From NCBI GenBank assembly GCA_963813065.1, contig CAWEXP010000008.1, forward strand, positions 73,289 to 137,288: a stretch of 64,000 nucleotides of DNA, written 5' to 3'. The stretch comes from Candidatus Kaiserbacteria bacterium. GTDB taxonomy: Bacteria; Patescibacteriota; Minisyncoccia; Phycocordibacterales; Phycocordibacteraceae. The position numbers were made by a program, and so were the translations under genes. Under the pieces are notes generated by a model, which was given only the letters and a program-made list of their open reading frames with translations, did no database searches and was not told the DNA's origin. This document shows positions 35,631 through 59,084 of the stretch, in pieces; position 1 is the first letter of the stretch; each line of letters begins with the position of its first letter.

Positions 35631-35702
35631 GCGCCCGTAGCTCAGCGGTAGAGCAAGAAGCTTTTAACTTCGAGGTCGGTGGTTCGATCCCACCCGGGCG
35701 CA
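35631..35702 (+). tRNA. tRNA-Lys (anticodon TTT)
   Basis: Acceptor GCGCCCG/CGGGCGC, D-arm GCTCAGCGGTAGAGC, anticodon loop CTTTTAA, T-arm GGTGGTTCGATCCCACC. No encoded CCA. Confidence 0.85.
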
Positions 35703-35703
35703 C

Positions 35704-36534
35704 ATGACTGTTTCTTTTCGAGAGCGGTGTCGAGCTCTGCGCCAGCAAGGCAAGAGGATCATTGAGATTGTGAAGATAACTGACCGGGCCAAATCTTCTG
35801 TCTATACGCACATACGAGACATGCCCCTTAGTGCGGACCGGATGCGGGCAGTGCGCGTTGCATCGGGGCGGCATATTCGGCTCTATGCGCTCGCGAGAAA
35901 GGGAAAGAGTGCGCGAAAGTTTAGGACATTCAAAAAATGGACGCCCGAGCTGGTGCTCCTCGTTGCCCACTTATTGTTTGACGGCGAAATATATCGCGGC
36001 GGAATCTACAACAACCGAAACACCGCGCTTATTGAACGCGTTGAGCAATACATGCGAATACTGTACGACTATGAACCGAAACGGTATACGAATCCCCTGA
36101 CGGGTGTGCATCGGATTAGTTATCATAATGTAGAATTCGGCGCGTTTCTAAAAGCAAAATCTCGAGAGTTACTTACGAAAGTAAAACGAATGCCGCCCGA
36201 GCTAAAACGAGAATTTTTGCGAGCATTTTTCGACGACGAGGGATGCATGGACTATCGGCCCAATGAAAATCGGAGAATGGTACGCGGGTACCAAAAAGAT
36301 GTCAGAATTCTCAAGCTCGTAAAAACGCTCCTGCAAGATTTCAGAATCTCCGCTCGTATAGTGAGACCGAACGAGGTGGTGATTGTGGGAAAAGAGAATC
36401 TAAAACGATTTCAATGCGAGATCAACTTCTCTCGCGGCATTTTTATGAACGGCGATCGCCCAAATAGTCGCTGGAAAAAACATATGGAAAAACGCGAGCT
36501 GTTGCGGCTCGCCATTGCGTCATTTAAAAATTAG
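35704..36534 (+). CDS. Double-motif LAGLIDADG homing endonuclease with N-terminal HTH
   Basis: Motifs LVAHLLFDGEI and LRAFFDDEGCM. ATG starts 2 nt after the tRNA-Lys discriminator base. Confidence 0.7.
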   Translation: MTVSFRERCRALRQQGKRIIEIVKITDRAKSSVYTHIRDMPLSADRMRAVRVASGRHIRLYALARKGKSARKFRTFKKWTPELVLLVAHLLFDGEIYRGGIYNNRNTALIERVEQYMRILYDYEPKRYTNPLTGVHRISYHNVEFGAFLKAKSRELLTKVKRMPPELKREFLRAFFDDEGCMDYRPNENRRMVRGYQKDVRILKLVKTLLQDFRISARIVRPNEVVIVGKENLKRFQCEINFSRGIFMNGDRPNSRWKKHMEKRELLRLAIASFKN

Positions 36535-37476
36535 TACGTGAATGCGTCCACGGTCTTACCCGAAGCGTCGAGGAGTTTTACTTCCTCGTGTTGTGGTCGC
36601 CACATACTAGAGCTACGACCAAGATAGATGCGCCAGGTGTTGCCCTCGAAGTCGGCGTCGGTACGGTGCTCCTGTACACAGCCGTTGTAATTGAGGTACG
36701 TGGTGAGGAAGGTCTGGCACGCGCCCGAGACGGTGGTGGGCGGCGTGAGTTGTGCCGAACAGCGCGAGAGCTTGTTTACGTAATTAATGCAGGCGACATC
36801 GCGCAGATAGTCAGGATAGTTCGCGAGGAGCTCGGTGGAAGGTGTGGGGCAGGTGAGGGGGAGTGCCGGTGAAAATTTCTGATACGTGCTGAAATAGCCG
36901 ATGCACTTATTCTCGCGGAAAGAGGCGCCGATGGGCGAGGAGCCGGAGACGATAATCGCAGTGTCACCGGGTTTGAGCGTAATATCCTGTACTGCTTGGA
37001 TGGTGCCCGAGAGCGGAACCTCGGTGCCCTCAGGGATCGTCGAGGCGTTACCACTCGCGGCACTCTCGATGGTCCAACCCGCGAGATTGACGGGTGCGCT
37101 CGCGGTCGAGGAGAGGCGGAATCTCAACCGACTCTTTTGCGGGAGTGCTCCCCGCGCCCGAGACATAGCCGTCGAGCAGAACGCTCCCGCGGTAGGGCGA
37201 CGGAGTGCCGAAGGCAATACCCGCGATTGGTGAGGGGGTGCCACTCGTGCTTCCACTGGTCTCAGTGCCAGCCGAGGAGCCGTTCAGGGTGATATTGGAA
37301 TTGCCGATGGTGAAAGGGGCCTGGGGGAGTGAGAGGTAGGTGCCGCCGCCGAGAACGCCCGGCTCGGAGAGTCGCGGGCCGCTGAGCGCGAGCTGATGGT
37401 TCGGGCCACCAGTAGCCGCCCAGATAAGGAACACGAATACGAATATGCCGATGAAGAAAAAGGCATCGTGTTGCAT
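36531..37476 (-). pseudogene. Lamin-tail-domain (LTD) secreted protein, split by a frameshift
   Basis: ORF 37048..37476 (N-terminal TM + Gly/Ser/Thr-rich) and ORF 36531..37256 (LTD-like NLAGWTIE...TLKPGDTAIIV) overlap in different frames. Confidence 0.4.
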
Positions 37477-37478
37477 AC

Positions 37479-38620
37479 CTAAGATGATAGCAGGCGTTTG
37501 AGCTCTTCGCGCACGACCGCGGCGTCGCTCCAGGGCGTTTTCTTTCCGTGCGCTTCCATGATGTACGGGTCAGTACCTTTGCCAGAAATGAGCACTGCAT
37601 CGCCCGGGCGCGCCGCGCGGAGCGCGGCGCGTATGGCCTCGCGGCGATCCATAATGATCTCCGGCTTTTTCTCTTTCATACCCGCAGCCATTTCTTGGAT
37701 AATTTTCTCTGGTGATTCGTCGTACGGGTCTTCGTTGGTGAGGATGACGTGCGCGCACTCGTGCTCGGCAATCTGCGCCATCAGGGGGCGCTTCCAGGTG
37801 TCGCGACCGCCACCCGTGTTCCCAAGCACGCAGATCTTGCGCTCGGTGGGGAAAGCGCCATACAGCGCCGTGAGTGAGTCGGGTGTGTGCGCGTAGTCGA
37901 CGACCGCGATGAAATCTTGTCCGGCATCAATGCGTTCGACGCGTCCGCGCACGACCGGGAGTTCTGCGAGCGCTTTTGCAGATATTTTCTGGTCAACGCC
38001 AAACGCGTTCGCCATCTTTATTCCCGCAAGCGCGTTCATTGCGTTGAAGGTGCCGGCAATCGGAAGGAGAAACTCTCATCAGAATATTTGAAATGTACAC
38101 GGTGATTGTCGCTCGCAAGCTCCGCAAGCTCGCTCCGCGAGAATCCGATTGTTTCGGAAACTGTGGCATCAAGAAATTTTTTCGTCTCGGGCACGTCCTC
38201 ATTTGAAACGAGTACGCGACGGCGTTTGGGCGAGTGTTCGAGGGTCGCGACAATCGCGCGTTTCGCGGCCACATACTTATCGAAGCCGCCATGGCTCTCG
38301 AGGTGTTCGCGCTGGATGTTCGTCACGATGAGCCCGTCGAGGTCGAGGAACCAGTGGCGATAATTCAACGTACTTTCAGAGGTGACCTCGACCACTACGT
38401 GTGTGCACCCGGCGCGAAGTGCTTTGCGCAGAAACTTTTGCGCGAAGCCGCGGCCCTGGAGCGTCATTTTAAATTTATTCGGCTCCGATTCGTCCTCAAT
38501 CGCGAAGCGAATGGTTGAAAGCAGTGCCGTTTTGTATCCTTTCGCGCGCAGGATGGCGAAGAAGCATCTCGGCGGTCGTCGACTTGCCCTTGGTGCCCGT
38601 GATGCCGATAACCGTCAGCC
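37479..38620 (-). pseudogene. Mur-ligase-family protein (MurE/MurF/FolC-like) broken into 3-4 reading-frame segments
   Basis: P-loop ITGTKGKSTTAEMLL (about 38560-38610). Central domain VVVEVTSESTLNYRHWFLDLDGLIVTNIQREHLESHGG (ORF 38036..38467). C-terminal domain NAMNALAGIKMANAFGV (ORF 37479..38039). Segments are in different frames; breaks near 38565 and 38060. Confidence 0.55.
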
Positions 38621-39311
38621 GGCGAGCGGGAAGCCGTAGGCGAGCGCCATGAGGAACGCAAGCGATGCGTGATACGCCGGTCGCAGTGGCCGCACCACCG
38701 ACTCCGGCACAATCTGCTTCAAAAAGCGCACGACGACGTCGACGAGTCCGTACATACCTGAGCCGCCGGAGGAGAGTGCCGCGCGCAGTCGCGCCTCTTT
38801 GCCGGCAATGTGCTCGGCGATGCCCGAGACTGCGCGCCTCGCCTCGCGTTCGGTGTAGCCGAGCGCGACCAACGTGTCGAAGACTTCGGCATCATCGCCA
38901 CTGCCGCCGCTCTTCGTATCGCCCATTTTCTCGGCAAGCTCGACCGCGAGCTTTTCTGCCGATTTCTTGCCGAGTCCGGCGACGCGCGTCAAATAAGTAA
39001 TATCGCGACGCGCGATGGCGCGTTCGAGCCCCTCGCGCGGAGAGCGGCGGAGAATCCCGAGCGCAGTCTTGGGTCCGATGCCCGAGACCGAGAGCAATTT
39101 CTCGAAGAAGTCGCGGTCGGCGACATCGCTGAATCCGTAGAGATTCATGCCGTTCTGCGAGATCGCGAGGTGTGTCGCGAGTGTTGCCTTCACTTCCCTC
39201 GGCCAGCCCTTCGGTTGAGGCAACGAAAACTTCGATACCGAAGCCTGCGACCTCGACCACCACGCTCGCAAGACCGAGCGAGAGCACCTTTCCGCGAATC
39301 TGCCGAATCAT
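38615..39311 (-). CDS. ruvA: Holliday junction DNA helicase RuvA, internal frameshift
   Basis: N-terminus MIRQIRGKVLSLGLASVVVEVAGFGIEVFVASTEG in one frame. Remainder KATLATHLAISQNGMNLYGF...ERDFFEKLLSVSGIGPKTALGIL...GYTEREARRAV in the +1 frame. Break near 39185-39200. Confidence 0.75.
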
Positions 39312-39369
39312 GCATCCATAGTACCGCAAACCTTGCATAATTGCCCCGCATCCCGTAAGGTAATCGCAC

Positions 39370-39615
39370 ATGGCAATCACCAGCTCAGCGAAGAAAGCAA
39401 TCCGCGTCAGTGCGCGGAAGCACGTCTTTAACCTCCGTCGCAAGGATGCGCTCTCGCGCACGACGAAATCTTTTACCAAGGCACCTACCACTGCCAGCCT
39501 CTCGGCCGCTTACAAGGCAATCGACAAGGCCGCCAAGCAGAACGTCATCACCAAGAACACCGCCTCGCGCAAGAAGAGCCGCCTCGCCAAAGCGCTCGCA
39601 AAAGTTTCTAAGTAA
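39370..39615 (+). CDS. rpsT: 30S ribosomal protein S20
   Basis: MAITSSAKKAIRVSARKHVFNLRRK... is the typical S20 N-terminus. 81 aa. Confidence 0.85.
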   Translation: MAITSSAKKAIRVSARKHVFNLRRKDALSRTTKSFTKAPTTASLSAAYKAIDKAAKQNVITKNTASRKKSRLAKALAKVSK

Positions 39616-39798
39616 TTGTGTGTCCCGCCTCGGCCTCGAACTTCGCCGCGTGCCGAGGGTTTTTGAACGAGTTAAATAAGACGGAGTCGAACCCCCGCAG
39701 TCGGGCACGATGCTATTGACACTTAGCATTCAACCTGCTAACATATAATCCAGATTGGGCAATTTGCTCGAACTCTGTCTGGCTATCGACAGCGATCT

Positions 39799-40347: not shown

Positions 40348-40391
40348 GAAGTGAGGCCAAACGAATTTGAGTAATCTGCTATCCTTGCGCA

Positions 40392-41065
40392 ATGGACGTT
40401 CCCGACTATCTCGAAAAGTATTATTGGTGGGCGTACGTGCGTCCCTGGGCCGTGCGGGTCTTCGAGCGCCCGTGGCTCATCAATCTTATCCTGTACGGCA
40501 ATTATACGAAACTACGCGACGTCACTGTGGCCGAGCTCGCACCGAACCTTGGCGGACGCACACTACAATCTCGGCGTGCTACGGCTCGCTCGTGCCGACG
40601 ATTGCCGAGCGCGCGCGGAGCGCCGGTGGTCACTACGAGCTCATCGACCTGTTGCCGACACAGATTGCGAATGCGCGACGCAAAGTTGGCGACAACTCTG
40701 CGGCACACATCCAGCAGATGAACGCCGTCGCACTCGATTTCCCTGACCATTCATTCGACAACGTCCTCCTCTTTTTCTTACTGCACGAACTGCCGCAGGA
40801 CTGGCGCGAGCGCGTTATGGCTGAGGCTCTGCGCGTCCTGGCGCCCGGCGGGAAAATGGTCATCACCGACTTCGGCAAGCCCGCAGGGTGGAATATCTTT
40901 TTCCGCTTCTTCTGGCTCCCCATGCTCGGCATTCTTGAACCGTTCGCGATACCGCTGTGGCGCCACGAACTCGCCGACATTCTCCCCGCGCAAATGGGCC
41001 AGCGCACCTGGCACCAACAAAAATATTTCGGCGGACTCTTTCAGAAACTGGTCGGAACAAAATAG
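40392..41065 (+). CDS. Class I SAM-dependent methyltransferase (type 11), frameshifted at an AA dinucleotide
   Basis: N-terminus in ORF 40392..40721. After GGRTLQ the continuation (I)SACYGSLVPTIAERARSAGGHYELIDLL...VLAPGGKMVITDFG is in ORF 40367..41065. Restoring one A at 40567-40568 joins them. Confidence 0.55.
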
Positions 41066-43492: not shown

Positions 43493-44062
43493 TTATAGAC
43501 CAACCGCACTAGCGCCGTACTCTGCTTGGGATTGTGTGTATTTATCGTATTCCAACTGTGCAATTAAGCTATCGCGCGAAAAAGCGGAATATGACATGTA
43601 CTGTTTGGCCGCCTTAGCCGCCTGCTCATTCCAGTTAGCACCGGAATTATCCGCACCATAAACCGCATCGGCAGGTGAGAATTGGTCGTACTCTAACTGG
43701 GCAATCAACCCGTCGTGAGAAAATGCTGTGTATTTTAAGTAAGATTGTGCCGCTCGAACTGCATTTTGTTGACTAACCGTTTCGTTTGAAACTGGGGGAG
43801 TGTTTTGACTGCTTGTTTGTATTGCTGTTGGAGTGGGCGCGGTCGAAGGTGCGGGTTGTTGCACCGGTTTGCTCGCCGCAGGTTTCTTCTGAACATCTGT
43901 GGTTTGTACGGATGTTGTTCCAGTGGCTGGGGCGGTAGTGGTTACGGCAGGGGAGGTGTTAGAACTGCCACTCTCTCCAATCACCACAATGACCAAAACG
44001 ACAATAATCCAGAACCACCATTGTTTATAGAACTTACCTTTTGTTTTTTCCTGCGAGTCCAT
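43493..44062 (-). CDS. Ltp-family surface lipoprotein-like (two Ltp repeats)
   Basis: N-terminal TM. Thr/Pro-rich linker. Two repeats AQSYLKYTAFSHDGLIAQLEYDQFSPADAVYGA and AKQYMSYSAFSRDSLIAQLEYDKYTQSQAEYGA. Confidence 0.6.
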   Translation of the reverse strand: MDSQEKTKGKFYKQWWFWIIVVLVIVVIGESGSSNTSPAVTTTAPATGTTSVQTTDVQKKPAASKPVQQPAPSTAPTPTAIQTSSQNTPPVSNETVSQQNAVRAAQSYLKYTAFSHDGLIAQLEYDQFSPADAVYGADNSGANWNEQAAKAAKQYMSYSAFSRDSLIAQLEYDKYTQSQAEYGASAVGL

Positions 44063-44220: not shown

Positions 44221-45832
44221 TTACTGCACTACCTGCCCATTTAGATATTTATGGTTCTTGTCTTGGGCGTCGTATTTACAACTGATTCCGCAGGAAGGCC
44301 ATTGATAATCAGAAGGTTGAACAGTAGTGAAGGTCGCTGGATCAGCTCCAATCAGCAACTGACCGCCCCAATAAACATTGTTTTTATCTTTTGCGTATGA
44401 GGTGTTTGGTATGTAAGAGAAGGTTACTATATCAACGCCGGGAATCGGAGTAACAGGTTCGGTGCTGCCGTTTGTAAGGTTACCAAGGGCATATGCCTGA
44501 TTCTTATCTTTTGCATAACCTCCTCCCATATACACAAACGTGTTCGGATCGGCTCCCGGTATCGGATAATTACCGAAATATACGTGCACCCCATCCTTTC
44601 CAAGTTCGTAATTTACACCATCGCCAGCAATATAGACGAATGTCTGAGGATCGGCACCTGGTATCACTTGTGCTCCAGGATATGACGAGGGAAAATAGAC
44701 ATATTTGTCGTCTTTTCCGTACTCACTATTGTTGCCGGCAACCCAAGTGAAGGTGGTTGGGTCGGCCCCTTGCACTATTTGCCCATTTTCGTAAACAGCA
44801 GCCTTATCTTTACCGTACCCTTCACCTAAAAAGATAAACGACGCAGGAACCGCGCCCGGGATCTCGCTGTTTTCGAAGTATACATTTTGGGCATCTTTAA
44901 AGTATGGAGTTGTTGAGCTAAGTGAAATAAAAGTTGCGGGGTCTGTCCCTGCGACAACGTTACTCCCGTAGTAAACATTATTTTTGTCTTTGCCAAATAC
45001 ATTACGTAAAGCGTCTTCGTAGAGTATTTGAAAAGTGGTAGCGTCGGCTTGTGGCATGAGAGGGGAGATGCCCCCATCGATATATATAGGGAAACCGATA
45101 TAAACGTGCTTGGCGTCTTTAGAGTAAGAGTCGAGAGGATCGACTCCAAAACTTAAACTCTCGAACGTACCAGGATCGGCACCGTCCACGCGCCCCAGCC
45201 ATTCACCGTCGACGCCTACCTCATATGCGTAGACATACTCCTTATCCTTCGCAAACCAGGAGAATTGATTTTGCTTGTCGTATACTAACGTAAAAGTGCT
45301 TGGATCTGGATTCGCGACTTGGTTATTCGGACCATCATAAACCTCGATTATTGCGCCGCCTTCATAGATGTGTATTGTCTTTAGCAAAGTCTTCAGTTCC
45401 AAATTCTTGCGCGTCAGAGGAAACGACGAAGCTTGCCGCGTCGGCCCCTAGTATCGATGAAGTTGCGTTACCGTAGTAAATTTGACCGTTTCTTTCGGAG
45501 TAGCCCGATGGATTGCCTAAGGGGAGTTCTGTAACTGGTATCCAACGGAAAGGTTTGTTTTGATCCACGACTGTGCTTGAGGTGGCTGTTGCATTAGTCG
45601 ATAGAGGCGCTTGATTCGATACCAATAGATTTATCACTCCTGGTACCCATAGTTTGTATGTAGCAATAAGACCAAGGCCGATGATGATAAGCACAAGCAG
45701 GATGATTCTAACTACTTTTATCGCCATGCTTGGACCTGTTGGTATCAGAGTTGTCGGCGGCTGTGCCGGATTTTGTTGCTCAGGTGAAGGAGGCATACGT
45801 GCTTCAACTCTAGCAGGTTTCGACCGATTCAA
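44221..45832 (-). pseudogene. Membrane-anchored DKNYY-repeat protein, frameshifted
   Basis: ORF 45362..45832 (TM anchor + first repeat) and ORF 44221..45402 (multiple YGKDKxxVY...GADPxTF repeats) overlap by 41 nt in different frames. Confidence 0.55.
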
Positions 45833-45920
45833 AACTCGGTTATCAACTTGCGCAACTTAGGCCTCAAGGTCGCACTAACGCCTCAGGCCTCAGGGTTGGT
45901 CCGATACAAAAGTCTTCGGG

Positions 45921-46003
45921 CGGAGGGGGTGGGACTCGAACCCACAAGGCCTTTCAGCCGCTAGTTTTCAAGACTAGTTCCTTACCATTCGGAGCACCCC
46001 TCC
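45921..46003 (-). tRNA. tRNA-Ser (anticodon TGA)
   Basis: Acceptor GGAGGGG/CCCCTCC, anticodon stem CTAGT/ACTAG with loop CTTGAAA, long variable arm CGGCTGAAAGGCCTTG, T-arm TGGGTTCGAGTCCCA. Confidence 0.85.
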
Positions 46004-46004
46004 G

Positions 46005-46487
46005 TTACTGATGCTTTTTCGATTTACGCAACCAGCTGTGTTGCAAATAATGCTGTTCAGCGTGGCAATTCGGGCAAATCAACTCCAAGTTAGATAGGTC
46101 GTTATTATTTCGATTCTTATCTTTATGGTGCACATGCAGAATTTCAATCCTGTCGTAGCCACACCGCTCACATACTTCGCCTCTTTCGGCGATTAGTCGG
46201 AGTTTTAGGGAGCGCTGATTTTTAACTTTGTCTTTCTTCGGTCGCCCGAGATATGAAATCCCGGCCCTATGTTTATTTGCGCATGCCCGACTGCAGGTCT
46301 TTGCGTTGGCGCTAGCCAAAATCGGAGTCCCGCATACCACGCACGGAGTTTCTATCCTGTTCGCCTTTCCGTAACATGCCTGACTACAAAAGACCCGACC
46401 TTTCTGCAACTCAGCCGGCCGACGATATACCGGCGTACCGCAGATTAGGCATTTTGTATTCGGATTTCTTTTATAATACTCAGACAC
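46005..46487 (-). CDS. HNH endonuclease with Cys-rich zinc fingers
   Basis: ILHVHHKDKNRNNNDLSNLELICPNCH HNH motif. Stop is 1 nt from the tRNA-Ser 5' end. Confidence 0.75.
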   Translation of the reverse strand: MSEYYKRNPNTKCLICGTPVYRRPAELQKGRVFCSQACYGKANRIETPCVVCGTPILASANAKTCSRACANKHRAGISYLGRPKKDKVKNQRSLKLRLIAERGEVCERCGYDRIEILHVHHKDKNRNNNDLSNLELICPNCHAEQHYLQHSWLRKSKKHQ

Positions 46488-46520
46488 TCATCCAGTATAC
46501 CACTCACTACACCGATCAGT

Positions 46521-50267: not shown

Positions 50268-50312
50268 CAGCGGTCAGGGCCCCAGTTTTCGTCTGCGAGG
50301 CCTCAAAAATAG

Positions 50313-50328
50313 TTCGCAACCGCGAGGG
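50313..50328 (+). repeat. Direct repeat copy 1 (TTCGCAACCGCGAGGG), candidate att site
   Basis: 18/20 identity with 53890-53909 (agtYcgcaaccgcgagggMt). The pair brackets the toxin-antitoxin plus serine recombinase element. Confidence 0.4.
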
Positions 50329-50454
50329 CTATTCGCGTTGCAGGAGGTCCAAATATGTCCTATAGTGCCAGTAACACTCTGTTCACACCCGCGTCATATA
50401 CACTGTTGTTTACTGGGCTAGATGCGCGACAATAGACACAGAAGACACATAAAA

Positions 50455-50961
50455 ATGGCCTCTACTCTCAACAAGGAAAAGTACACGAACGCGCTCCTGT
50501 ATTTCATTACGGAGTGTGGCAATGAGAAGTTGGGCATTATGAAGCTCAACAAGCTTTTCTACTACCTCGACTTCATCTCCTATCGTGACCGCAAGGCAAG
50601 CGTCACCGGCGAAACATACGTCCATCTTCCGAAAGGCCCACTCGCTTCCTCGCTTGAAACTGAAATCATCGCCTCCGCCCAAAAGGCCAAGCTCATCGAG
50701 CGCAAGGAGGACGAGAGCGAAAAGTACGGCAAGCGGAACCGCTTCCAAGCACTCAAGGAAGCCGATCTCTCATTGTTTGATGAGTACGAGCAAGGATTGC
50801 TCAAGTATCTCTCCTCGACATTCAAGGACTGGAGTACCGATAAAATGGTCGCCCAGACGCACAGCGAAGCACCGTGGGTTTTCTCGAACCCGAGTAAGCC
50901 GCTCGATTATAAGAATGCTGACGACATCGAATTCTTTACGGAACACGCAGTAGCGGCGTAG
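50455..50961 (+). CDS. Panacea-domain (SocA/DUF4065-like) antitoxin-type protein
   Basis: KLNKLFYYLDFISYRD motif. ATG at 50455. Confidence 0.55.
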   Translation: MASTLNKEKYTNALLYFITECGNEKLGIMKLNKLFYYLDFISYRDRKASVTGETYVHLPKGPLASSLETEIIASAQKAKLIERKEDESEKYGKRNRFQALKEADLSLFDEYEQGLLKYLSSTFKDWSTDKMVAQTHSEAPWVFSNPSKPLDYKNADDIEFFTEHAVAA

Positions 50962-50981
50962 GGATTTCGGCTCCTTCTCGT

Positions 50982-51365
50982 ATGGCTTGGCGCGTGGAGC
51001 GGACAGAGAGTTTCGACAGGTGGTGGAAGAAGGAAAAGGTTGAGGAGGCGAACTACAAATACCACAAGCAGGCTCTTGAGGATTTTCAACCGATCTCGCT
51101 CCCGCACAACGTGCAGAGCTGCATTTTCAAGAACACGAGCTTTGAGTGCTGGGTCACGCGGTTGCCGGATAAGATGCGGCAGCAGGGCAAGTCAGGCGGA
51201 TTCCGCGTCGTGCTCGTTCTCGACCTTGAAGAGAAGGTGCTCTGGCTCCAGGGCATATTCCGTCGCGGTCATCTTTCGTGGCAGGGTAGCAGCGGCAAAC
51301 ACGACGATGCATACGATGCTCTCGTGAAGGATTTGGCGCAACAGTTTGTAGAAGCTAAGCACTAA
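50982..51365 (+). CDS. Putative toxin partner (RelE/ParE-like fold)
   Basis: [24 protein letters not shown] resembles the RelE/ParE core. Adjacent to the Panacea gene. Confidence 0.4.
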
Positions 51366-52698
51366 CAATTTCCGCGTCAGCGAGTTTGATTATTCGATCA
51401 TTCAAGATAAGCCGGTCTCTCAGATGCTCCAGCAGCTCCCGCTTCTCTTCCCGGCTACCATTCTTCAGTAGATACTTAGCGTATTTGCGTATGTCCATCT
51501 CCTTGGCCTCGATGGTTTCTGAGGTGCCCTCAACCTCAGCCCGCAGCTTGTTGTACCTCGATACCTCGCGCTCAATCAGGTGTCGTGCCCCGATCTCGTC
51601 GAGGGATATACGGTCGATGAGGGTGACCAGCTGGTCGAGCACCTTTTCCTCGCGCAGATACGGGTTCTTGCACTGGGTATCCTTGGCGCGGGAACAGGAA
51701 TAATAGATGTACGATACCGGCTCTCCGGTACTGAGCAGTTTAGATTTTTCTTGCGCTGTGATGCCTGAGCCGCAGTACCCGCAGAGGAGGAGCTTGGTGA
51801 AGTTCCATTCCTTGAATCTGGTCTTTGGGCGATTCTCCTCTGCGATCTTTTCTTGTACCGCTTGGAATAATTCCTGAGTGATGAGCGGCGTATGCTTGCC
51901 GGTATACCAATTGCTCGAGCCTCGTGGATATTCGAAGACGCCACAGTAGAAGGGATTCTTGAGCATTTTGTATAGGGTAGATAGGTTCATGCTCTTGCCG
52001 ATTCGGGAGGCGAAGTGCACATCGCGCTTGAGCCACCCGTGTACCTTGCGGCCGCTCCAACGCTCGACACCAACTTTCTCAAACACTTGCTTGATGATAG
52101 GGGAGCGGACTGGATCAACGAGTACCTCACAGCGATGATCCTTTCGACCATCATTCAAGTATCCCGTTGGCGCGATGCCAGGCCAGAGTCCCATTTCGAC
52201 TCGCGCTCTGAGACCGCGCTTCACGTTGACGCGCTTGTTGTCGTTCTCGAGCTTGGCCTGCGAGCCGAGAATCATGAGCAAGAACTTCTCATTCGGGTTA
52301 TTGCCGAACCGCTGGCCGTACGTCCTAATGTCCACCAAGTGCTTGCTGTCCATTAAGTCCACGATGCGGCCGAGGTCTCCGGCGTTCCTGCTAATGCGGT
52401 CTGGTGCCCAGGTTAAGATGCCGTTGAACTTGCCCGCCCGCAGCTCGTCCACGATCTCGTTGAACACCGGCCGCGCCCCGGCTTCCTTGGCCGAGTGCGA
52501 TTCGCGCTTCATTTCGACAATCTCCAATTTCTCCTTCTTCGCCAAGGCGAGCATCTCCTTCACCTGGCTCTCGATGCTGAGCACCTGCTGTTCTTCGCTC
52601 TCGGTGCTCTTCCTCGCATACAAGCAGTACCGCACCGTCTGCACCTCCACCAAGGGAGGAGCCGCCCCGAAACCGCCCTGAATCATTGCTGTTTCCAT
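51355..52698 (-). CDS. Large serine recombinase (resolvase domain + recombinase + zinc-ribbon)
   Basis: Resolvase N-terminus [19 protein letters not shown] with catalytic Ser. C-terminal [11 protein letters not shown] zinc ribbon. 447 aa. Confidence 0.9.
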
Positions 52699-52862
52699 AC
52701 ATGTGCCGTTATTGCTAACGGTCTAAGGGATGACGCAACCCCTCACGGGTGTCCAGCGAGGGGCTGTTGGTATCTAAAAGGCCTGTCCCCATGAGCGCTA
52801 CCGCCCTACAAAATGTGAGGTAAAATGGGGGCGTACCCTTAATTTGATTACCACTCGTAATT

Positions 52863-53489
52863 ATGTCTGCTGAAAACCCGTTTGCGAAATCACCAATACG
52901 CGAGGTCACTGCTGAAGACCTTGGTATCCCACCGGAAGCCGAGGCGCTCGTTGCTGCCCCACCACCCGTCGCAGAGACCGCCTCTGAAATTCCTGCGGTT
53001 GAATCAGAGCGTGCTCAGCAAATCGGCAAGCAGATGGAATCCCTTAGCGCGACTGGGGGCAGGTCCGCAGAAAAACTGCGACGCATTGAGATGGAGGCCG
53101 ACCGGCATCCCGAATACTTCGGCGGGAATCCGGAACTGTCTAATCAGTTTTGGACGCGCGTGCAGGAAAAGGCCGCAGAACTCCGCACCGGGCCAGAGCT
53201 GATGCGTAAGAAAGAAGAGTTTTGGGATAAATGGAAGAAGGGTTCGATGATTACGGCTGGCGTAGGTGTGCTAGCTGGCGTTGCGGGAGCCGCTTGGAGT
53301 GCAAAATACGGCTTTGACCACACCTACATGAAAGAAGTTCTCGGGCAATCTCTGAATGTGCCAATGGTTGCCGGATTTGCAACCGCCGCCATTGCGGAGG
53401 GTTCAGCTGGTATTGGGAAGCTCATGGAGATGCTTCGAGGCCAAAAGCGCTCCGATCTCCAGGATAATTTAAGGAGGAATAAAATCTAA
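52863..53489 (+). CDS. Hypothetical protein with C-terminal hydrophobic segment
   Basis: 208-aa ORF. TM MITAGVGVLAGVAGAAW. Confidence 0.35.
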   Translation: MSAENPFAKSPIREVTAEDLGIPPEAEALVAAPPPVAETASEIPAVESERAQQIGKQMESLSATGGRSAEKLRRIEMEADRHPEYFGGNPELSNQFWTRVQEKAAELRTGPELMRKKEEFWDKWKKGSMITAGVGVLAGVAGAAWSAKYGFDHTYMKEVLGQSLNVPMVAGFATAAIAEGSAGIGKLMEMLRGQKRSDLQDNLRRNKI

Positions 53490-53495
53490 AGCACC

Positions 53496-53690
53496 ATGGA
53501 CAACAATCAAAATTTCAACTCCCTCGATTTGCAGCAGATTTTCGAGAGCCTGCCGGACGACAAGAAAGTCGAGTTCCTGAAAGACCTCCAAGAAATCGTA
53601 TCTCTCGGCGATCAGCAGATTTTCGACGTCGAGCGCATCATCGGCGAGACAATCAAGGAATTTGAAGATAAAAAGGCCGCTACAGCATAG
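53496..53690 (+). CDS. Small acidic hypothetical protein
   Basis: 64-aa ORF followed by an intrinsic terminator. Confidence 0.3.
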   Translation: MDNNQNFNSLDLQQIFESLPDDKKVEFLKDLQEIVSLGDQQIFDVERIIGETIKEFEDKKAATA

Positions 53691-53708
53691 TCACTCCCCA
53701 GGAGAAAC

Positions 53709-53739
53709 CCGCCGCGCTAGATAAACGCGGCGGTTTTCT
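53709..53739 (+). terminator. Rho-independent terminator
   Basis: ccgccgcg-ctagataaa-cgcggcgg followed by ttttctg. Confidence 0.45.
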
Positions 53740-53891
53740 GATTCTAGGTATTTGTAGGCATTTTGCGGCCTGCCGCATGAGTGTCTAATGTGTCTAACCC
53801 CTCAAAATGCAACACGCCACAAACGCCCTTTTGGCGTTGCATTCTATATCATTTTGACCCCCGACCCCCTGTCAGATTTGTAAGATTTCAG

Positions 53892-53907
53892 TCCGCAACC
53901 GCGAGGG
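53892..53907 (+). repeat. Direct repeat copy 2 (TCCGCAACCGCGAGGG), candidate att site
   Basis: See 50313..50328. Confidence 0.4.
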
Positions 53908-54135: not shown

Positions 54136-54232
54136 TGGTGCCGAGGGGGGGACTTGAACCCCCAATCCCTTGCGGGAACTACGACCTGAACGTAGCGTGT
54201 CTGCCAATTTCACCACCTCGGCTTTTGTTGCT
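54136..54232 (-). tRNA. tRNA-Leu (anticodon CAG), CCA encoded
   Basis: Acceptor GCCGAGG/CCTCGGC, anticodon stem CTACG/CGTAG with loop TTCAGGT, long variable arm, T-arm GGGGGTTCAAGTCCCCC, then ACCA. Confidence 0.85.
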
Positions 54233-54247
54233 CGCGTATGCCAGCTG

Positions 54248-54321
54248 TGCGCGGTGAGGGATTCGAACCCCCGACCTTTCGCGTGTAAGGCGATCGCTCT
54301 AACCAACTGAGCTAACCGCGC
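54248..54321 (-). tRNA. tRNA-Val (anticodon TAC)
   Basis: Acceptor GCGCGGT/ACCGCGC, D-arm GCTCAGTTGGTTAGAGC, anticodon loop CTTACAC, T-arm GGGGGTTCGAATCCCTC. Confidence 0.85.
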
Positions 54322-54384
54322 GCACCGCTACACTAGCAAGTAATCAACAGTCCTCCAATGTTTCGAACCCCGGTATAGTATACT

Positions 54385-55092
54385 GTGTTGTATACATCTA
54401 TGAAACGGCAAGAGCGGGACAAGTCGATTTTACTTAGAAAACGTGGCATGTCTCTCGGTGAGATTGCGCGCAGACTCAAAGTCTCAAAAGCCATCGTAAG
54501 TGTATGGGTACGGAGCGTTCCTCTTTCCAAAAAACAACGAGAATCTTTGAATGATCGTGGGTTTAGTATTGGTGCGATAGAAAAAAGAAGGGAAGCGAGA
54601 ATCGCACATACTCAACAGAGGCACCGAAAAGTAATCGATACAGCGAAAACCAGCATCAAGGAAATCTCAAAAACAGATTTAAAACTAATTGGTACGGCCC
54701 TGTACTGGGGAGAGGGTGGAAAGTCTCTGCGAGGCGGTGCGCGCATTGCCAATAGCGATCCTCGCATTATTGTCATAATGATGCGTTTCTTCCGTGAAGT
54801 TTTCTCGGTGCCCGAAACAAAGTTTCGAGGACAAGTGCATACGTTTTCACACCTCAATGCTGGAAAAGCAGAACGATACTGGTCAAAAGTGTCGGGCATC
54901 CCAACTACACAGTTTTATAAGACGTATTCGAAACCAAGTATTGCGAGTCAGGGAAAGAAAGATAACTTGCCAAATGGAACTTTTGATATTTACGTCTCTG
55001 ACACAATCATATTTCTCACCATCCAAGGATGGATTGAAAGACTTGCAGAACTCGGGGCTGAAGTTCCGCATCGCGCGCTCAAGATGGAGTAG
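54385..55092 (+). CDS. LAGLIDADG-type endonuclease with N-terminal HTH (single motif)
   Basis: HTH MSLGEIARRLKVSKAIVSVWV. LAGLIDADG-like LIGTALYWGEGGKS. 64 bp from the tRNA-Val/tRNA-Leu pair. Confidence 0.55.
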   Translation: MLYTSMKRQERDKSILLRKRGMSLGEIARRLKVSKAIVSVWVRSVPLSKKQRESLNDRGFSIGAIEKRREARIAHTQQRHRKVIDTAKTSIKEISKTDLKLIGTALYWGEGGKSLRGGARIANSDPRIIVIMMRFFREVFSVPETKFRGQVHTFSHLNAGKAERYWSKVSGIPTTQFYKTYSKPSIASQGKKDNLPNGTFDIYVSDTIIFLTIQGWIERLAELGAEVPHRALKME

Positions 55093-55098
55093 TATAGG

Positions 55099-55938: not shown

Positions 55939-55962
55939 CCAGTACGTTACCTTATTCTCTTC

Positions 55963-56682
55963 ATGCCCGTTCCCATTACTATGGCTCAAGGACCACTTTC
56001 AGTCGGCATCATCATGGACGGCAATCGCCGCTGGGCGAAAGAGCGCGGGCAGAGCTCCCTCGATGGGCACGAGGCGGGCGCACGACTCCTGCTTACACTC
56101 CTCGACGAGTATCGCGCGATCCGCGACGAGTGGGGCACCGCGCACTATATTTTTTATGCATTCTCGACCGAGAATTGGAGTCGGACCCAGGAGGAAGTTG
56201 CGAATCTGCTCGGCATCTTCGAACGCGCGTTTAAGAGTATTGAAGAGCGACTACCGAAACTGCTCGAAGACGGTGTGCGCGTCCGTTTCATTGGCGACCG
56301 CTCCCGCTTCTCCCCACAACTGCAGGCACTGATGCGTGGCGTGGAAGAAAAAACAAAAGAGGGCACGCGGGGCACCATCGCCATTGCGGTCTCGTATGGC
56401 GGCCAAGCGGACATTCTGCAAGCGAGCAGTCGGCTATTGAAAGAGGGCAAGAAAGAAATGTCTGCCGAGGATCTCTCCTCGGTGCTCTGGACTCACGGCA
56501 TCCCCGCGCCGGACCTCATCATCCGCACCGGCGGCGAACACCGGCTCTCCAATTTCCTCACCTGGGAATCGGTCTACAGCGAACTCTTTTTCATCGACAC
56601 ACTCTGGCCGGACTTCTCTCGCGCCGAACTCGAAAAAATCTTTACCGACTTCAGGACGCGCGAGCGCCGGCACGGGAAATAA
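55963..56682 (+). CDS. uppS: Undecaprenyl pyrophosphate synthase
   Basis: SVGIIMDGNRRWAKERG and FSTENWSR motifs. Confidence 0.9.
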   Translation: MPVPITMAQGPLSVGIIMDGNRRWAKERGQSSLDGHEAGARLLLTLLDEYRAIRDEWGTAHYIFYAFSTENWSRTQEEVANLLGIFERAFKSIEERLPKLLEDGVRVRFIGDRSRFSPQLQALMRGVEEKTKEGTRGTIAIAVSYGGQADILQASSRLLKEGKKEMSAEDLSSVLWTHGIPAPDLIIRTGGEHRLSNFLTWESVYSELFFIDTLWPDFSRAELEKIFTDFRTRERRHGK

Positions 56683-56698
56683 GTGATAGGGTAGAGCC

Positions 56699-57418
56699 AT
56701 GAATCTCCCGATTCTCTATGAGGATGCCGACGTGGTCGCGGTCAATAAGCCTGCGGGACTCGTCACGCACCGCGACGGAAGAACGATAGAAGAAAGCGCC
56801 GACGAGTGGTTCAAAAAGAAGTATTCCGAGGTGACGCTGGAGCGGCCGTACGTGCATCGGCTCGACCGCGATACCTCGGGTGTGTTGGTGTTCGCAAAAA
56901 ATGAAGCGGCGTACGATTTTCTCCGCAAAGCATTTACGGATAGGGACGTGAAGAAAGAATATCTCGCCTTTGTATACGGCGTGCCGAAAGAGAAAAACGG
57001 CACGATTGATTTCGATATTGGCCGCTCGCGAAAAGATTTCCGTTTGCGCAGTGCCCAGCCAAAGGCGCGCGGCACGCTCCGCTCTGCGGTGACGAAGTAC
57101 ACTGTGCTCGATACCGACGAGGGAGGCCAGCACGCCCTCTTGAAGGTGGAGCCCGAGACCGGTCGCACGCACCAGATCCGCGTGCACCTGAAGGCGATTC
57201 ATCATCCAATCGTTTCTGATCCACTCTATGCGCCGAATCAGCCGCACGACCTCGGCTTGAATCGTCTCGGCCTACACGCGTATCAGATTGAGCTCCCGCT
57301 CCCATCCGGTACTCAAAAAATAATCACCGCGCCCATTCCCAACGATTTGAAGATCGCGTTTGCGCAGTTTCCTCAGCAAAGGTATCTTTCAGGACAGGCA
57401 CTGAACGGAGTGAATTGA
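56699..57418 (+). CDS. RluA-family pseudouridine synthase
   Basis: HRLDRDTSGVLVFAKN catalytic Asp motif. Confidence 0.85.
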   Translation: MNLPILYEDADVVAVNKPAGLVTHRDGRTIEESADEWFKKKYSEVTLERPYVHRLDRDTSGVLVFAKNEAAYDFLRKAFTDRDVKKEYLAFVYGVPKEKNGTIDFDIGRSRKDFRLRSAQPKARGTLRSAVTKYTVLDTDEGGQHALLKVEPETGRTHQIRVHLKAIHHPIVSDPLYAPNQPHDLGLNRLGLHAYQIELPLPSGTQKIITAPIPNDLKIAFAQFPQQRYLSGQALNGVN

Positions 57419-57419
57419 T

Positions 57420-57683
57420 TTGGAACACGGTCAAAAAGTTCTGCTGGAGCGACTTGTCACGCATCTCGTTATCACGCACCCGTTGCCCTGGCGTATCGAG
57501 TCGGATTGGACGCAAGAAGTAACTGCCGCCGACGGTACGATCATTGTGAAGTGTCTGACTACGGAAGAAGCACAAGCACTCATCGACTTGGCCGAGAAGA
57601 AACGGAAGGAACTGGACGAACCGAGCGAAGCAGAGCTCATTAGTCAATTCCGCGCAGTATTTCCTCGGCAGAAGTGTCGATAA
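57420..57683 (+). CDS. Hypothetical protein
   Basis: 87-aa ORF immediately following rluA. Confidence 0.3.
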   Translation: MEHGQKVLLERLVTHLVITHPLPWRIESDWTQEVTAADGTIIVKCLTTEEAQALIDLAEKKRKELDEPSEAELISQFRAVFPRQKCR

Positions 57684-57752
57684 ACCAATCACGGCGGGCC
57701 AAGTGCCCGCCGTTTTGCTTTTTTATGAGGCCAGTGCTACAGTGCGCGGACT

Positions 57753-58220
57753 ATGAAGGTGATGACGCCAGTCAATGTCGAGGGGCGCGCCAAGCTCGGG
57801 ATCCGCCCGGGTGACACTGTGCGCGTCACCCAGAAGATTGTCGAGCTCAAGAAGGGCAAGGCCGCCAACAAGAAGGAGGTCTCGACCAAGACCGCGCGCA
57901 CCCAGGTCTTCGAGGGCCTCGTGCTGGCGGTCAAGCACGGGCGGGAAGCGGGCGCGATGTTCACCGTCCGCGCGACCCTCTCGGGCGTCGGCGTCGAGAA
58001 AATTTTCCCGCTCTATTCGCCCGCCATCGATTCTATCGAGATTGTGAAGCGTTCCAAGGTCCGCCGCGCCAAGCTCTACTTCATCCGCGAGAAGGCGGCC
58101 AAGGTGGTCCGCCGCCAGCTTAGGAACGCGCGCATGATGCACGTGAAGAGCGACGAGGAGATGCCCGTTGCTGAGGTTGCCGAGGCAGAGGCACCAGTCG
58201 CCGCAGAGGTCGCGGCATAA
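57753..58220 (+). CDS. rplS: 50S ribosomal protein L19 with Ala/Glu-rich C-terminal extension
   Basis: IRPGDTVRVTQKIVELKKGK...FEGLVLAVKHG...FTVRATLSGVGVEKIFPLYSP...KVRRAKLYFIR. Confidence 0.85.
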   Translation: MKVMTPVNVEGRAKLGIRPGDTVRVTQKIVELKKGKAANKKEVSTKTARTQVFEGLVLAVKHGREAGAMFTVRATLSGVGVEKIFPLYSPAIDSIEIVKRSKVRRAKLYFIREKAAKVVRRQLRNARMMHVKSDEEMPVAEVAEAEAPVAAEVAA

Positions 58221-58285
58221 GAGAAACATCCGGTTATCCACCGGATTTTTGTTAAAATAAACTGGTATACGCTTATACTTGAGGT

Positions 58286-58990
58286 ATGGCGAAACGCGGG
58301 GCAAAGCCGAAGGGGAGGGAAGTGAGGTGGTCATCAGAATTGGCATATGCAGTTGGGTTGATGGCCTCGGATGGATGCTTATCAAGTGACGGAAGGCATC
58401 TCCTCTTCGTTTCAAAAGATATTGAGCAAATCCGGAATCTTAAGAAGTGTCTCGGATTAAAAGCGAAAGGTGAAAATCATCGACCGGGGCGGAAACGAGG
58501 AGTCGGCATTTGTTACCGCATCCAGTGGAGCGATGTCATTTTGTATAGTTTTTTGTCAGATGTTGGACTTACTCCACACAAATCACGCACTCTCGGGCCA
58601 CTCAACATACCCGATGCATATTTCTTTGATTTCTTGCGCGGAAGCTTCGATGGCGATGGTTCTTTTTATAGTTATTACGACCCGCGCTGGAAGTCGAGCT
58701 TCATGTATTACCTGTCTTTCAATTCAGCGAGTCTCGCCCATACGCTCTGGATACGTACAGTGCTCAAGCGCCTCATCGGAGTTCGAGGGCATGTTTCAAG
58801 AACGAAGCCGGACACACAAAAAAAGAATCCCATAGCAAGTTTACGCTATGCAAAAAAGGAGGCCTTGGTTGTTGTGCGCGCGATGTATGCGATGCCAGAT
58901 GCGCCACACCTCTCGCGTAAGAAGTTGAAAATCAAGCGTACATTGCGTATAGTGGGAAAGTCTTTGCTTGCACAGTCAGCAAGAGATTGA
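58286..58990 (+). CDS. Double-motif LAGLIDADG homing endonuclease
   Basis: Motifs LAYAVGLMASDGCL and FLRGSFDGDGSF. Stop 9 nt before tRNA-Leu(GAG). Confidence 0.75.
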   Translation: MAKRGAKPKGREVRWSSELAYAVGLMASDGCLSSDGRHLLFVSKDIEQIRNLKKCLGLKAKGENHRPGRKRGVGICYRIQWSDVILYSFLSDVGLTPHKSRTLGPLNIPDAYFFDFLRGSFDGDGSFYSYYDPRWKSSFMYYLSFNSASLAHTLWIRTVLKRLIGVRGHVSRTKPDTQKKNPIASLRYAKKEALVVVRAMYAMPDAPHLSRKKLKIKRTLRIVGKSLLAQSARD

Positions 58991-58999
58991 CAAGATAGC

Positions 59000-59084
59000 G
59001 CCCGGGTGGCGAAACTGGCAGACGTACCACCTTGAGGTGGTGGCGCCCGTTAAGGGCATGGAGGTTCGAGTCCTCTCCCGGGCA
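59000..59084 (+). tRNA. tRNA-Leu (anticodon GAG)
   Basis: Acceptor GCCCGGG/CCCGGGC, anticodon stem CCACC/GGTGG with loop TTGAGGT, long variable arm, T-arm GGAGGTTCGAGTCCTCT. Confidence 0.85.

Follow-up and report, generated by a model that had tools for sequence, protein, structure and literature searches.

Endonuclease-type genes joined to specific tRNA genes in Paceibacteria as candidate free-standing homing elements

We analysed a 64,000-nucleotide stretch of DNA from a Candidatus Kaiserbacteria bacterium (GenBank GCA_963813065.1, contig CAWEXP010000008.1, positions 73,289–137,288; referred to here as the window) in which four homing-endonuclease-type genes each have a tRNA gene as neighbour. 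Our favoured interpretation, to which we give a probability of about 60%, is that these are free-standing elements of the homing-endonuclease type which, in the Paceibacteria, a class of the Candidate Phyla Radiation (CPR), have specialised on tRNA genes. Each family appears to be dedicated to one tRNA gene and to one exact junction of its transcription unit, with the LAGLIDADG-type gene LAG1 apparently placed in the 3' trailer of tRNA-Lys(UUU), and a second LAGLIDADG gene (LAG3) and an HNH gene in the 5' leaders of tRNA-Leu(GAG) and tRNA-Ser(UGA), respectively. The fourth open reading frame (ORF), which combines a helix-turn-helix (HTH) with a single LAGLIDADG-like domain, is divergent from tRNA-Val(UAC) (see Table 1 for coordinates; loci and contigs of relatives are given by their L numbers). 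Partial tRNA duplications found at the far ends of elements would fit insertion into, or replacement of, a tRNA gene.

Results

Endonuclease-type genes and tRNAs of the window

ARAGORN located eight tRNA genes within 23.5 kb (35.6–59.1 kb), at the coordinates given in the preliminary description of this DNA, which had been made from the sequence alone, and seven of the eight pass the Rfam gathering threshold; the eighth, tRNA-Leu(GAG) (59000–59084), was confirmed by Rfam at 45.7 bits in a local search. All four endonuclease-type ORFs were likewise recovered beside their tRNA partners where that description had put them, on the basis of ARAGORN, Rfam, Pfam and the sequence itself. The 9 nucleotides (nt) it had given between the LAG3 stop and tRNA-Leu(GAG) proved exact, the HNH ORF it had ending 1 nt from tRNA-Ser is 0 nt (ARAGORN) or 1 nt (Rfam) away, and the LAG1 start it had set beside tRNA-Lys is an ATG at 35704, 1 nt past the discriminator base at 35702. 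For the HTH ORF, the adjacency to tRNA-Val held and the start at 54385, 64 bp from the tRNA, did not, as public gene calls start at the ATG at 54400, 78 nt away.

Searches of the window with hidden Markov models (HMMs) of the three LAGLIDADG-type families, and with the HNH protein using phmmer, found no further copies, so that every endonuclease-type gene there (4/4) adjoins a tRNA. All four genes are also found together in one relative (L224). The source names of the LAG1, LAG3 and HTH families are Kaiserbacteria, Nomurabacteria and Paceibacterota/Minisyncoccia, which correspond to the CPR class Paceibacteria, and public records label these ORFs mostly as 'hypothetical' or 'transcriptional regulator'. 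The LAGLIDADG fold was recognised for both LAG1 and LAG3, and a conserved acidic residue was found in each LAGLIDADG helix of LAG1, LAG3 and the HTH family.

LAG3 and tRNA-Leu(GAG)

LAG3 varies in presence among close relatives at a single site. In genomes retrieved through the HTH protein, a sampling that is unbiased with respect to LAG3, the gene was present in 4 of 11 (the window, L167, L177 and L224), and in the seven empty genomes the distance from the rplS stop to tRNA-Leu(GAG) was only 10–104 nt, from which the LAG3 insertion can be defined as a discrete unit of ~0.77 kb. Several of the empty relatives have a ribosomal protein L19 that is 75–80% identical to that of the window, and are as close to it as the filled relatives. 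A filled site differs from an empty one by one ORF and some tens of bases, with no recombinase within the insertion, and Pfam matched none of the ORFs found after tRNA-Leu(GAG) or after other tRNAs where sites are empty.

The Pfam score of LAG3 (19.4 bits) is under the cut-off of 22.5 bits; the protein nonetheless has two clear LAGLIDADG motifs, and the family profile matches the archaeal homing endonuclease 2dch in a PDB search (2.4e-7). The family includes 1777 clusters of ~225–236 amino acids (aa), most homologues carry PF14528, and among the acidic residues D29 is found in at least 90% of members and D122 and D124 are invariant within D122-G-D-G125. In nearly all of the loci with room for it (80 metagenome loci), tRNA-Leu(GAG) lies 0–46 nt past the LAG3 stop or overlaps it, in a conserved order of RluA, rplS, LAG3, tRNA-Leu(GAG) and tRNA-His.

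Just 5' of the LAG3 ATG, 55 of 69 loci have a 25-nt motif, AATTGGTA(G/T)ACGCTAT(T/A)ACCTTGAGGT, which mirrors the D-loop and anticodon-loop blocks of tRNA-Leu(GAG) with a spacing that is the same to within 1 nt. When both strands of 2.9 Mb were searched, this composite pattern was found 64 times in tRNA-Leu(GAG) genes and 47 times just 5' of LAG3, with four or five more cases 5' of LAG3 in loci lacking a called tRNA-Leu(GAG), and around six occurrences elsewhere. The upstream fragment ends at the anticodon loop and is missing the acceptor and D-stem 5' strands, and a promoter scan identified a -10-like TATACT inside it, ending 6 nt before the ATG. No such tRNA-Leu-like 5' fragment is present at the empty rplS–tRNA-Leu sites. 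The conserved fragment may hold the LAG3 promoter or a protein-binding site; we rejected a conserved RNA hairpin, as pairing inspected by eye is not kept from locus to locus.

The 3' coding end of LAG3 includes a second promoter-like element, with TTGAAA-N17-TATAGT/TATAAT found in 45 of 72 distinct loci versus 0.2% of shuffles, and the -10 hexamer ending a median of 33 nt before tRNA-Leu(GAG). The fixed TTG (Leu) and ATA (Ile) codons in LAG3 suggest selection at the DNA level, and the embedded element would most simply be the tRNA-Leu promoter relocated into LAG3. A separate motif, (A/C)TTGACAA(A/G)NNA(A/G)(T/C), occurs in the window (58986–58999) and at many LAG3 loci, where it abuts the 5' end of tRNA-Leu(GAG) and spans the LAG3 stop codon; it contains a perfect TTGACA hexamer which is misplaced for a -35 element of the tRNA.

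LAG3 divergence followed that of its neighbours poorly, with Spearman correlations between LAG3 and L19 of 0.08 (55 loci) and 0.20 (the 33 loci that also have RluA), compared with 0.47 for the L19–RluA control in the same 33. The outliers include L134/L146, in which L19 is 50% identical and LAG3 70%, and this weak congruence would be a weak but consistent sign of movement between lineages. An intron reading for LAG3 was rejected since the tRNA that comes after it is complete and no family of intron RNAs was matched, with none at the Rfam gathering threshold in the window and none at E values up to 10 across 58150–59150. All partner tRNAs of the four genes are complete and uninterrupted, and none of the endonucleases lies inside a tRNA intron.

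HNH ORF and tRNA-Ser(UGA)

The TAA stop codon of the HNH ORF (46005–46007) touches the 5' end of tRNA-Ser called by ARAGORN (46004; the Rfam end is 46003). The Pfam HNH domain was matched across residues 106–146 (28.2 bits against a cut-off of 21.4 bits), and the translation shows CxxC...HVHHKD...N...CPNCH, that is, the metal motif with flanking Cys pairs. HNH orthologues (63–69% identity) are found in the same place, directly 5' of tRNA-Ser(UGA), in L110 and L224, so that the gene is present at three of ~18 tRNA-Ser(UGA) loci and absent from ~15. The empty sites have a divergent neighbour gene and a TGGTATA-type promoter element within ~70 nt of the tRNA, and the putative -10-like element upstream of the HNH GTG looks to be of the same type as those just 5' of the tRNAs at these empty sites. 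More distant paralogues (30–42% identity) lie directly 5' of tRNA-His(GUG) or tRNA-Leu(UAA) (Table 1).

HTH-LAGLIDADG ORF and tRNA-Val(UAC)

Pfam gave only weak HTH matches for this ORF and no LAGLIDADG match. The family, with 402 clusters of ~220–230 aa, has an invariant YWGEGGK motif which includes the invariant E105, and aligns to the HTH and first LAGLIDADG domain of LAG1, including the motif helix (hhalign 96%, E 1.7e-9), with reciprocal HMM matches between the two families of 4e-6 and 7e-5; on this basis a LAGLIDADG fold is probable. A divergent tRNA-Val(UAC) was found 71–97 nt from the ORF in 11 of 11 genomes, and orthologues are absent from ~18 LAG3-anchored loci that hold tRNA-Val(UAC). 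Distant paralogues (25–29% identity) are located 5–126 nt 5' of tRNA-Arg(GCG) or tRNA-Arg(CCG), and the tRNA association therefore reaches further HTH subfamilies and further tRNAs. Variable presence at the same site among close relatives, as expected of a homing element, is thus seen for LAG3, HNH and HTH.

We note that the spacer between tRNA-Val and the HTH ORF (window 54322–54399; also L161, L167, L173, L175, L176 and L177) contains a conserved (T)GAACC block and, a few nt beyond it, a -10-like TATA(A/G/C)T; the window sequence, TTCGAACCCC, resembles a tRNA T-loop. tRNA-Val(UAC) and the RluA/rplS block lie on opposite strands in every HTH-bearing genome, and share a strand in many genomes without HTH. 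This difference in tRNA strand with HTH presence hints that the tRNA and the ORF are one cassette.

LAG1 and tRNA-Lys(UUU)

At the LAG1 junction the tRNA-Lys end called by Rfam (35702) is followed by C35703 and then the ATG, leaving no space for a ribosome-binding site. A scan using one genome per species returned 79 LAG1 loci, and wherever upstream sequence was available for a bacterial locus of 38% protein identity or more, tRNA-Lys(UUU) lay directly 5' in the same orientation (~70/70). The discriminator A-C-ATG junction is retained in ~53 of these 70 loci and the two genes are within 2–7 nt in 14 more, and the tRNA-Lys sequences themselves have diverged, with compensatory stem changes, despite the kept junction.

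LAG1 matches Pfam LAGLIDADG_3 (37.3 bits, E 3.4e-9), and an AlphaFold2 (AF2) model with a predicted local distance difference test score (pLDDT) of 89 gave Foldseek matches to I-DmoI, PI-SceI and the TliVMA intein endonuclease (E 1e-5 to 1e-6), as well as to the LAGLIDADG domain of WhiA (3hyi/3hyj). Pfam returned no WhiA match for LAG1, and its profile had no meaningful match among PDB sequences. N-terminal to the double LAGLIDADG core is an HTH-like module. The family has 520 clusters, nearly all of 275–279 aa and 58–69% identical, with 71 invariant alignment columns including D93-G94 and F175-F-D-D-E-G-C181, so that the acidic residues D93, D177, D178 and E179 are invariant; E95, which closes motif 1, is replaced by G or S in ~40% of members, making the catalytic residue of motif 1 ambiguous.

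Five LAG1 loci (L021, L028, L038, L071 and L072) have a tRNA 3'-end remnant 0–15 nt past the LAG1 stop, consisting of the T-loop, the acceptor 3' strand, the discriminator and sometimes CCA, and these remnants differ in sequence from the complete resident tRNA-Lys. They would fit the outcome expected if an incoming tRNA-Lys-plus-LAG1 unit had replaced most of the native tRNA-Lys, and the presence of such foreign remnants hints at past replacement.

LAG1 was present in all three of the evaluable unbiased genomes (the window, L175 and L224), among which neither presence/absence polymorphism nor horizontal spread was seen. No empty tRNA-Lys(UUU) site was found in a small sample, in which eight HTH-anchored loci with 10-kb flanks gave only two relatives (L175 and L224) that extend to the region, both of them filled; one further contig, judged from its gene calls, has a 216-aa ORF without annotation at the place expected for LAG1. 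LAG1 pairwise identity tracks that of MurC and RuvA (Spearman 0.57 and 0.69, control 0.75), the protein is as conserved as RuvA, and it stays joined to tRNA-Lys in both of the local gene orders that we observed. LAG1 looks to behave as a long-fixed, vertically inherited resident rather than an active homer, and may have been domesticated, though the acidic motif residues have been kept.

Neighbouring features of the window

A Cas1 gene lies immediately to the left of tRNA-Lys, and the Cas1–LAG1 pair is also present on a second public contig (L001). The 64-kb window contains no CRISPR (clustered regularly interspaced short palindromic repeats) array, and the ORFs near Cas1 (33920–34435, 33245–33895, 32577–33176, 31648–32547 and 30304–31080) gave no cas-family Pfam match, with no match at all for the first three. 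The gene may be a solo Cas1 or casposase-like.

A probable integrated element separates tRNA-Arg(UCU) from tRNA-Leu(CAG); in relatives the distance between these two tRNAs ranges from tens to at most a few hundred nt. Serine-recombinase islands recur at the 3' flank of tRNA-Leu(GAG) (window 59086–60032; L176 12713–20369; L136; L150); the resolvase domain of the recombinase ORF in the window is missing, and in the L176 island the recombinase is complete, with genes for a DNA methylase and a ThsB-TIR (Thoeris-like) protein coming after it. The window lacks the tRNA-His gene usually found after tRNA-Leu(GAG). Between tRNA-Arg(CCG) and tRNA-Arg(GCG), where most relatives have a gap of 30–480 nt, the space is taken up by a class I methyltransferase ORF, and the short gap of the relatives identifies the ORF as another tRNA-flanked single-gene insertion, in this case not an endonuclease.

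The Mur ligase is split into overlapping ORFs for the M and C domains and is one ORF of 416–421 aa in L175 and L224; the split is either a frameshift, a pseudogene or an assembly error. Finally, a low-GC stretch (45–49% GC at 44–46 kb) has a DKNYY-family gene with an Ltp-like surface lipoprotein gene just before it, and a second DKNYY gene is found elsewhere in the window. The low-GC stretch may be accessory or horizontally acquired DNA.

Table 1. Features of the window and related ORFs at other tRNA genes (positions are those of the window unless an L number is given).
Feature	Position	Strand	Basis or remarks
DKNYY-family gene, second	31648-32547	+	
Cas1 gene	34436-35488	-	immediately left of tRNA-Lys
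tRNA-Lys(UUU)	35631-35703	+	ARAGORN; Rfam 67.8 bits; discriminator A at 35702, CCA not encoded
LAG1, N-terminal HTH and double-domain LAGLIDADG, 276 aa	35704-36534	+	Pfam LAGLIDADG_3; AF2 and Foldseek; conserved junction
Mur ligase, split	37479-38467	-	M domain 38036-38467, C domain 37479-38039
Class I methyltransferase ORF	40367-41065	+	between tRNA-Arg(CCG) and tRNA-Arg(GCG)
Ltp-like surface lipoprotein gene	43493-44062	-	just before DKNYY-family gene
DKNYY-family gene	44221-45402	-	low-GC stretch
tRNA-Ser(UGA)	45918-46004	-	ARAGORN; Rfam 53 bits
HNH endonuclease ORF, 160 aa, GTG start	46005-46487	-	Pfam HNH; stop abuts tRNA-Ser 5' end
TGGTATAC, extended -10-like element (putative, from sequence)	46495-46502	-	7 nt 5' of HNH GTG
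Probable integrated element	50269-53900		between tRNA-Arg(UCU) and tRNA-Leu(CAG)
SocA/Panacea antitoxin-like ORF	50422-50961		in probable integrated element
ORF of unknown type	50982-51365		in probable integrated element
Large serine recombinase	51355-52698	-	in probable integrated element
tRNA-Leu(CAG)	54136-54222	-	follows tRNA-Val(UAC), same strand
tRNA-Val(UAC)	54247-54321	-	ARAGORN; Rfam 71.3 bits
HTH and single LAGLIDADG-like domain ORF, 230 aa from ATG 54400	54400-55092	+	alternative GTG start 54385; divergent from tRNA-Val, 78 nt
rplS	57753-58220		
Terminator-like hairpin after rplS	58228-58246	+	loop conserved in close LAG3-carrying relatives
Partial tRNA-Leu(GAG) copy	58258-58285	+	D-loop block AAACTGGTATACG, 6-nt spacer, anticodon-loop block CTTGAGGT; ends at LAG3 ATG
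LAG3, double-motif LAGLIDADG endonuclease, 234 aa	58286-58990	+	between rplS and tRNA-Leu(GAG); motifs GLMASDG, FDGDGSF; PDB 2dch
Sigma-70-like promoter TTGAAA-N17-TATAGT in LAG3 3' coding end	58925-58953	+	scan 10/12 matches; 46 nt 5' of tRNA-Leu(GAG)
tRNA-Leu(GAG), complete	59000-59085	+	ARAGORN; Rfam 45.7 bits
Serine-recombinase ORF	59211-60032	-	resolvase domain missing
HNH paralogues by tRNA-His(GUG) or tRNA-Leu(UAA)	L082 4441-4911; L110 12565-12903; L148 4230-5181; L139 16818-17312 (-)		L148, two in tandem
HTH-LAGLIDADG paralogues near tRNA-Arg	L224 3665-4186; L019 8250-8810; L062 8242-8775	-	25-29% identity

Discussion

The preliminary description had suggested either tRNA-gene-targeted homing or the co-mobilisation of tRNA-plus-endonuclease units, and had proposed comparing the same tRNA loci in related genomes. 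Such a comparison revealed presence and absence, with precise empty sites, for LAG3, HNH and HTH, and the suggestion is supported by the fixed sites, the precise empty sites and the partial tRNA duplications.

We envisage that the enzymes would cut the unoccupied tRNA locus, with the slowly evolving tRNA sequence forming part of the target, and that repair would then copy the element in, at times along with a copy of the tRNA. It should be noted that an intact tRNA stands beside each element, so that the mature tRNA cannot contain the whole target, which must include flanking sequence. The start-codon contexts of LAG1, LAG3 and HNH suggest leaderless or near-leaderless messages. The LAG1 mRNA might be produced by tRNA 3' processing (RNase Z type) as an essentially leaderless C-AUG message, whereas LAG3 and HNH would be transcribed, almost leaderless, from tRNA-type promoters and be parted from the tRNA by RNase P. 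The embedded promoter would make the clean loss of LAG3 costly, as the tRNA would lose its promoter, and LAG1 would be the furthest along towards permanent, vertically inherited residence. In this mechanism tRNA genes would serve the elements as conserved landing sites, promoter donors and mRNA-processing signals.

We also offer, as a more tentative and rather doubtful extension, the view of an endonuclease guild built into Paceibacteria tRNA transcription units, in which LAG1 is expressed leaderless through tRNA 3' processing, as a conserved bacterial parallel to mitochondrial tRNA punctuation, LAG3 holds the promoter of an essential tRNA in its reading frame and so resists clean loss, the elements carry or replace tRNA copies and so drive the horizontal exchange of tRNA genes, and LAG1 may serve the host.

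Several points weigh against interpreting these genes as homing elements. Cleavage, the target site and transfer are deduced from comparisons of sequence, as are the leaderless mRNAs and processing steps from the geometry of the junctions, and a target wholly inside tRNA-Leu(GAG) would be self-cutting next to LAG3. All three LAGLIDADG-type families are strongly conserved (57–70% identity, uniform length) with few pseudogenes, the sole frameshifted copy found being in L062. LAG1, which appears fixed (3/3) and co-diverges with MurC and RuvA, is unlike an actively cycling selfish element. The conservation of the LAG3 5' fragment across genomes implies a function outside this model, and the AF2 model of the HTH ORF (pLDDT 82) had no significant Foldseek match.

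The main rival, and strongest for LAG1, is that the LAGLIDADG/HTH proteins, LAG1 above all, are domesticated host proteins that are no longer mobile, which we regard as unlikely and still worth serious attention. They might be DNA-binding regulators of tRNA operons, or factors handling tRNA or rRNA-intron RNA, which stay beside the tRNA through co-expression or cis action. No evaluable relative lacks LAG1, and its divergence parallels that of its neighbours; the protein shows very strong conservation (71 invariant columns, uniform length), and the gene keeps its pairing with the tRNA through local rearrangements; LAG1 also has an N-terminal HTH, the domesticated LAGLIDADG regulator WhiA is among its fold matches, and E95 of motif 1 is replaced in ~40% of members. 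Set against this, LAG3, HNH and HTH are dispensable among close relatives, each motif retains at least one invariant acidic residue (D93 and D177/D178/E179 in LAG1, D124 in LAG3, E105 in HTH), and the tRNA remnants and the LAG3 fragment point to insertion events. We know of no host function that would need such a protein, and count this against domestication too.

A second alternative, that the endonuclease genes are the cargo or relics of integrase-type islands targeted to tRNAs by recombinases, seems very improbable. The window has serine-recombinase genes beside tRNA-Arg(UCU)/tRNA-Leu(CAG) (51355–52698) and tRNA-Leu(GAG) (59211–60032), a recombinase is found at the same tRNA-Leu(GAG) 3' flank in L176, L136 and L150, in L176 together with defence genes, and a full tRNA accompanied by a displaced partial copy is what integration at a tRNA classically leaves behind. 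But filled and empty sites differ by one ORF and a short flank, with no recombinase included, the same ORF junction is kept in genomes without a nearby recombinase, and the recombinase islands are on the opposite side of the tRNAs. No inserted segment was found to contain a recombinase with att repeats, those of the window being outside the segments. We also rejected a phage origin or vector, as a search of IMG/VR found no LAG1 relatives and only distant LAGLIDADG relatives of LAG3 (22–35% identity), none of them near a tRNA. Lastly, adjacency by chance in a compact, tRNA-dense genome has next to no probability even with eight tRNAs packed into 23.5 kb and ordinary genes abutting other tRNAs in ~4–9% of cases in the same CPR loci (the ORFs abutting tRNA-His in four loci are ordinary cobalamin adenosyltransferase genes), since the same family, tRNA and junction recur in tens to hundreds of genomes, none of 45 distant viral LAGLIDADG genes used as an outside control lies within 400 nt of a tRNA, and we estimate p ~4e-4 for 4/4 in ~13 tRNA-neighbour slots among ~82 genes; the comparative data and the controls together exclude tRNA density alone as the cause.

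Comparison with known systems

The HNH enzymes of the T5 tRNA region are one precedent from a phage tRNA cluster. Another is T4 SegB, a free-standing GIY-YIG enzyme encoded between tRNA-Arg and tRNA-Ile with its target in the tRNA intergenic region, and promoters embedded in T4 endonuclease ORFs have been described as a retention device (PMC2988022). The Paceibacteria genes resemble these phage endonucleases in being free-standing rather than intronic, in lying between or beside tRNA genes, in their sporadic presence among relatives, in having ORF-embedded promoters that would favour retention, and in their poor or oddly spaced ribosome-binding sites. They differ in being chromosomal in a cellular CPR lineage with phage copies not found, in belonging to the LAGLIDADG and HNH families rather than to GIY-YIG as SegB does, in the pairing of each family with one specific tRNA at nucleotide-exact junctions, in the partial tRNA duplications, and in the apparent fixation of one family (LAG1).

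The CPR LAGLIDADG genes in the literature we searched were rRNA-intron ones only, encoded within 23S/16S insertions (PMC11809585, PMC7143001). Our genes share with the archaeal and CPR rRNA-intron enzymes (I-DmoI, I-Tsp061I/2dch) the same fold and motifs and a highly conserved stable-RNA gene as home, and with those of CPR the same host phylum; in contrast, they are located in the leader or trailer, the tRNA is uninterrupted and splicing is not needed, and LAG1 and HTH have an extra N-terminal HTH. LAG1 is like WhiA in joining a LAGLIDADG scaffold to an HTH, in the fold match to 3hyi/3hyj, and in being a conserved and vertically inherited bacterial protein. WhiA, however, carries its HTH at the C-terminus and has lost the catalytic acidic residues, whereas in LAG1 the HTH is N-terminal, the acidic residues are invariant and a Pfam WhiA match is absent.

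In islands and phages that integrate at tRNA genes, attL is the restored tRNA and attR the displaced partial copy, with the T-loop and anticodon loop the usual crossover sublocations. The LAG1 loci with remnants have a similar arrangement of full tRNA, element and a remnant running from the T-loop to the tRNA 3' end, and LAG3 mirrors this with a fragment ending at the anticodon loop, the element and then the full tRNA. The differences are that an integrase is absent, the element is a single ORF of 0.7–0.8 kb, and the LAG3 fragment has been kept across genomes, unlike a decaying native remnant. Finally, the LAG1 ATG 1 nt past the tRNA 3' end recalls the tRNA punctuation and leaderless mRNAs of mitochondria, as tRNA 3' processing would create a translatable 5' end, although this is a single gene pair in a bacterial chromosome with processing proposed from sequence.

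No account of free-standing endonuclease families linked to tRNAs in CPR bacteria turned up in full-text literature searches. The features that appear to be new are the dedication of one family to one tRNA at nucleotide-exact junctions, the integrase-free partial tRNA duplications, the tRNA promoter inside an endonuclease ORF, and the tRNA-then-ATG junction.

Significance

These families provide hundreds of natural LAGLIDADG and HNH variants, with likely targets readable from empty sites, and should be useful for enzyme discovery. If our interpretation is true, tRNA 3' processing is predicted to create a translatable leaderless bacterial mRNA, and one element would be hard to delete since it hosts the promoter of a tRNA. 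Selfish genes would then persist in tiny genomes by borrowing tRNA promoters and processing while leaving the tRNA unharmed, and tRNA genes, besides rRNA introns, would be major long-term homes of homing endonucleases in the CPR/Patescibacteria.

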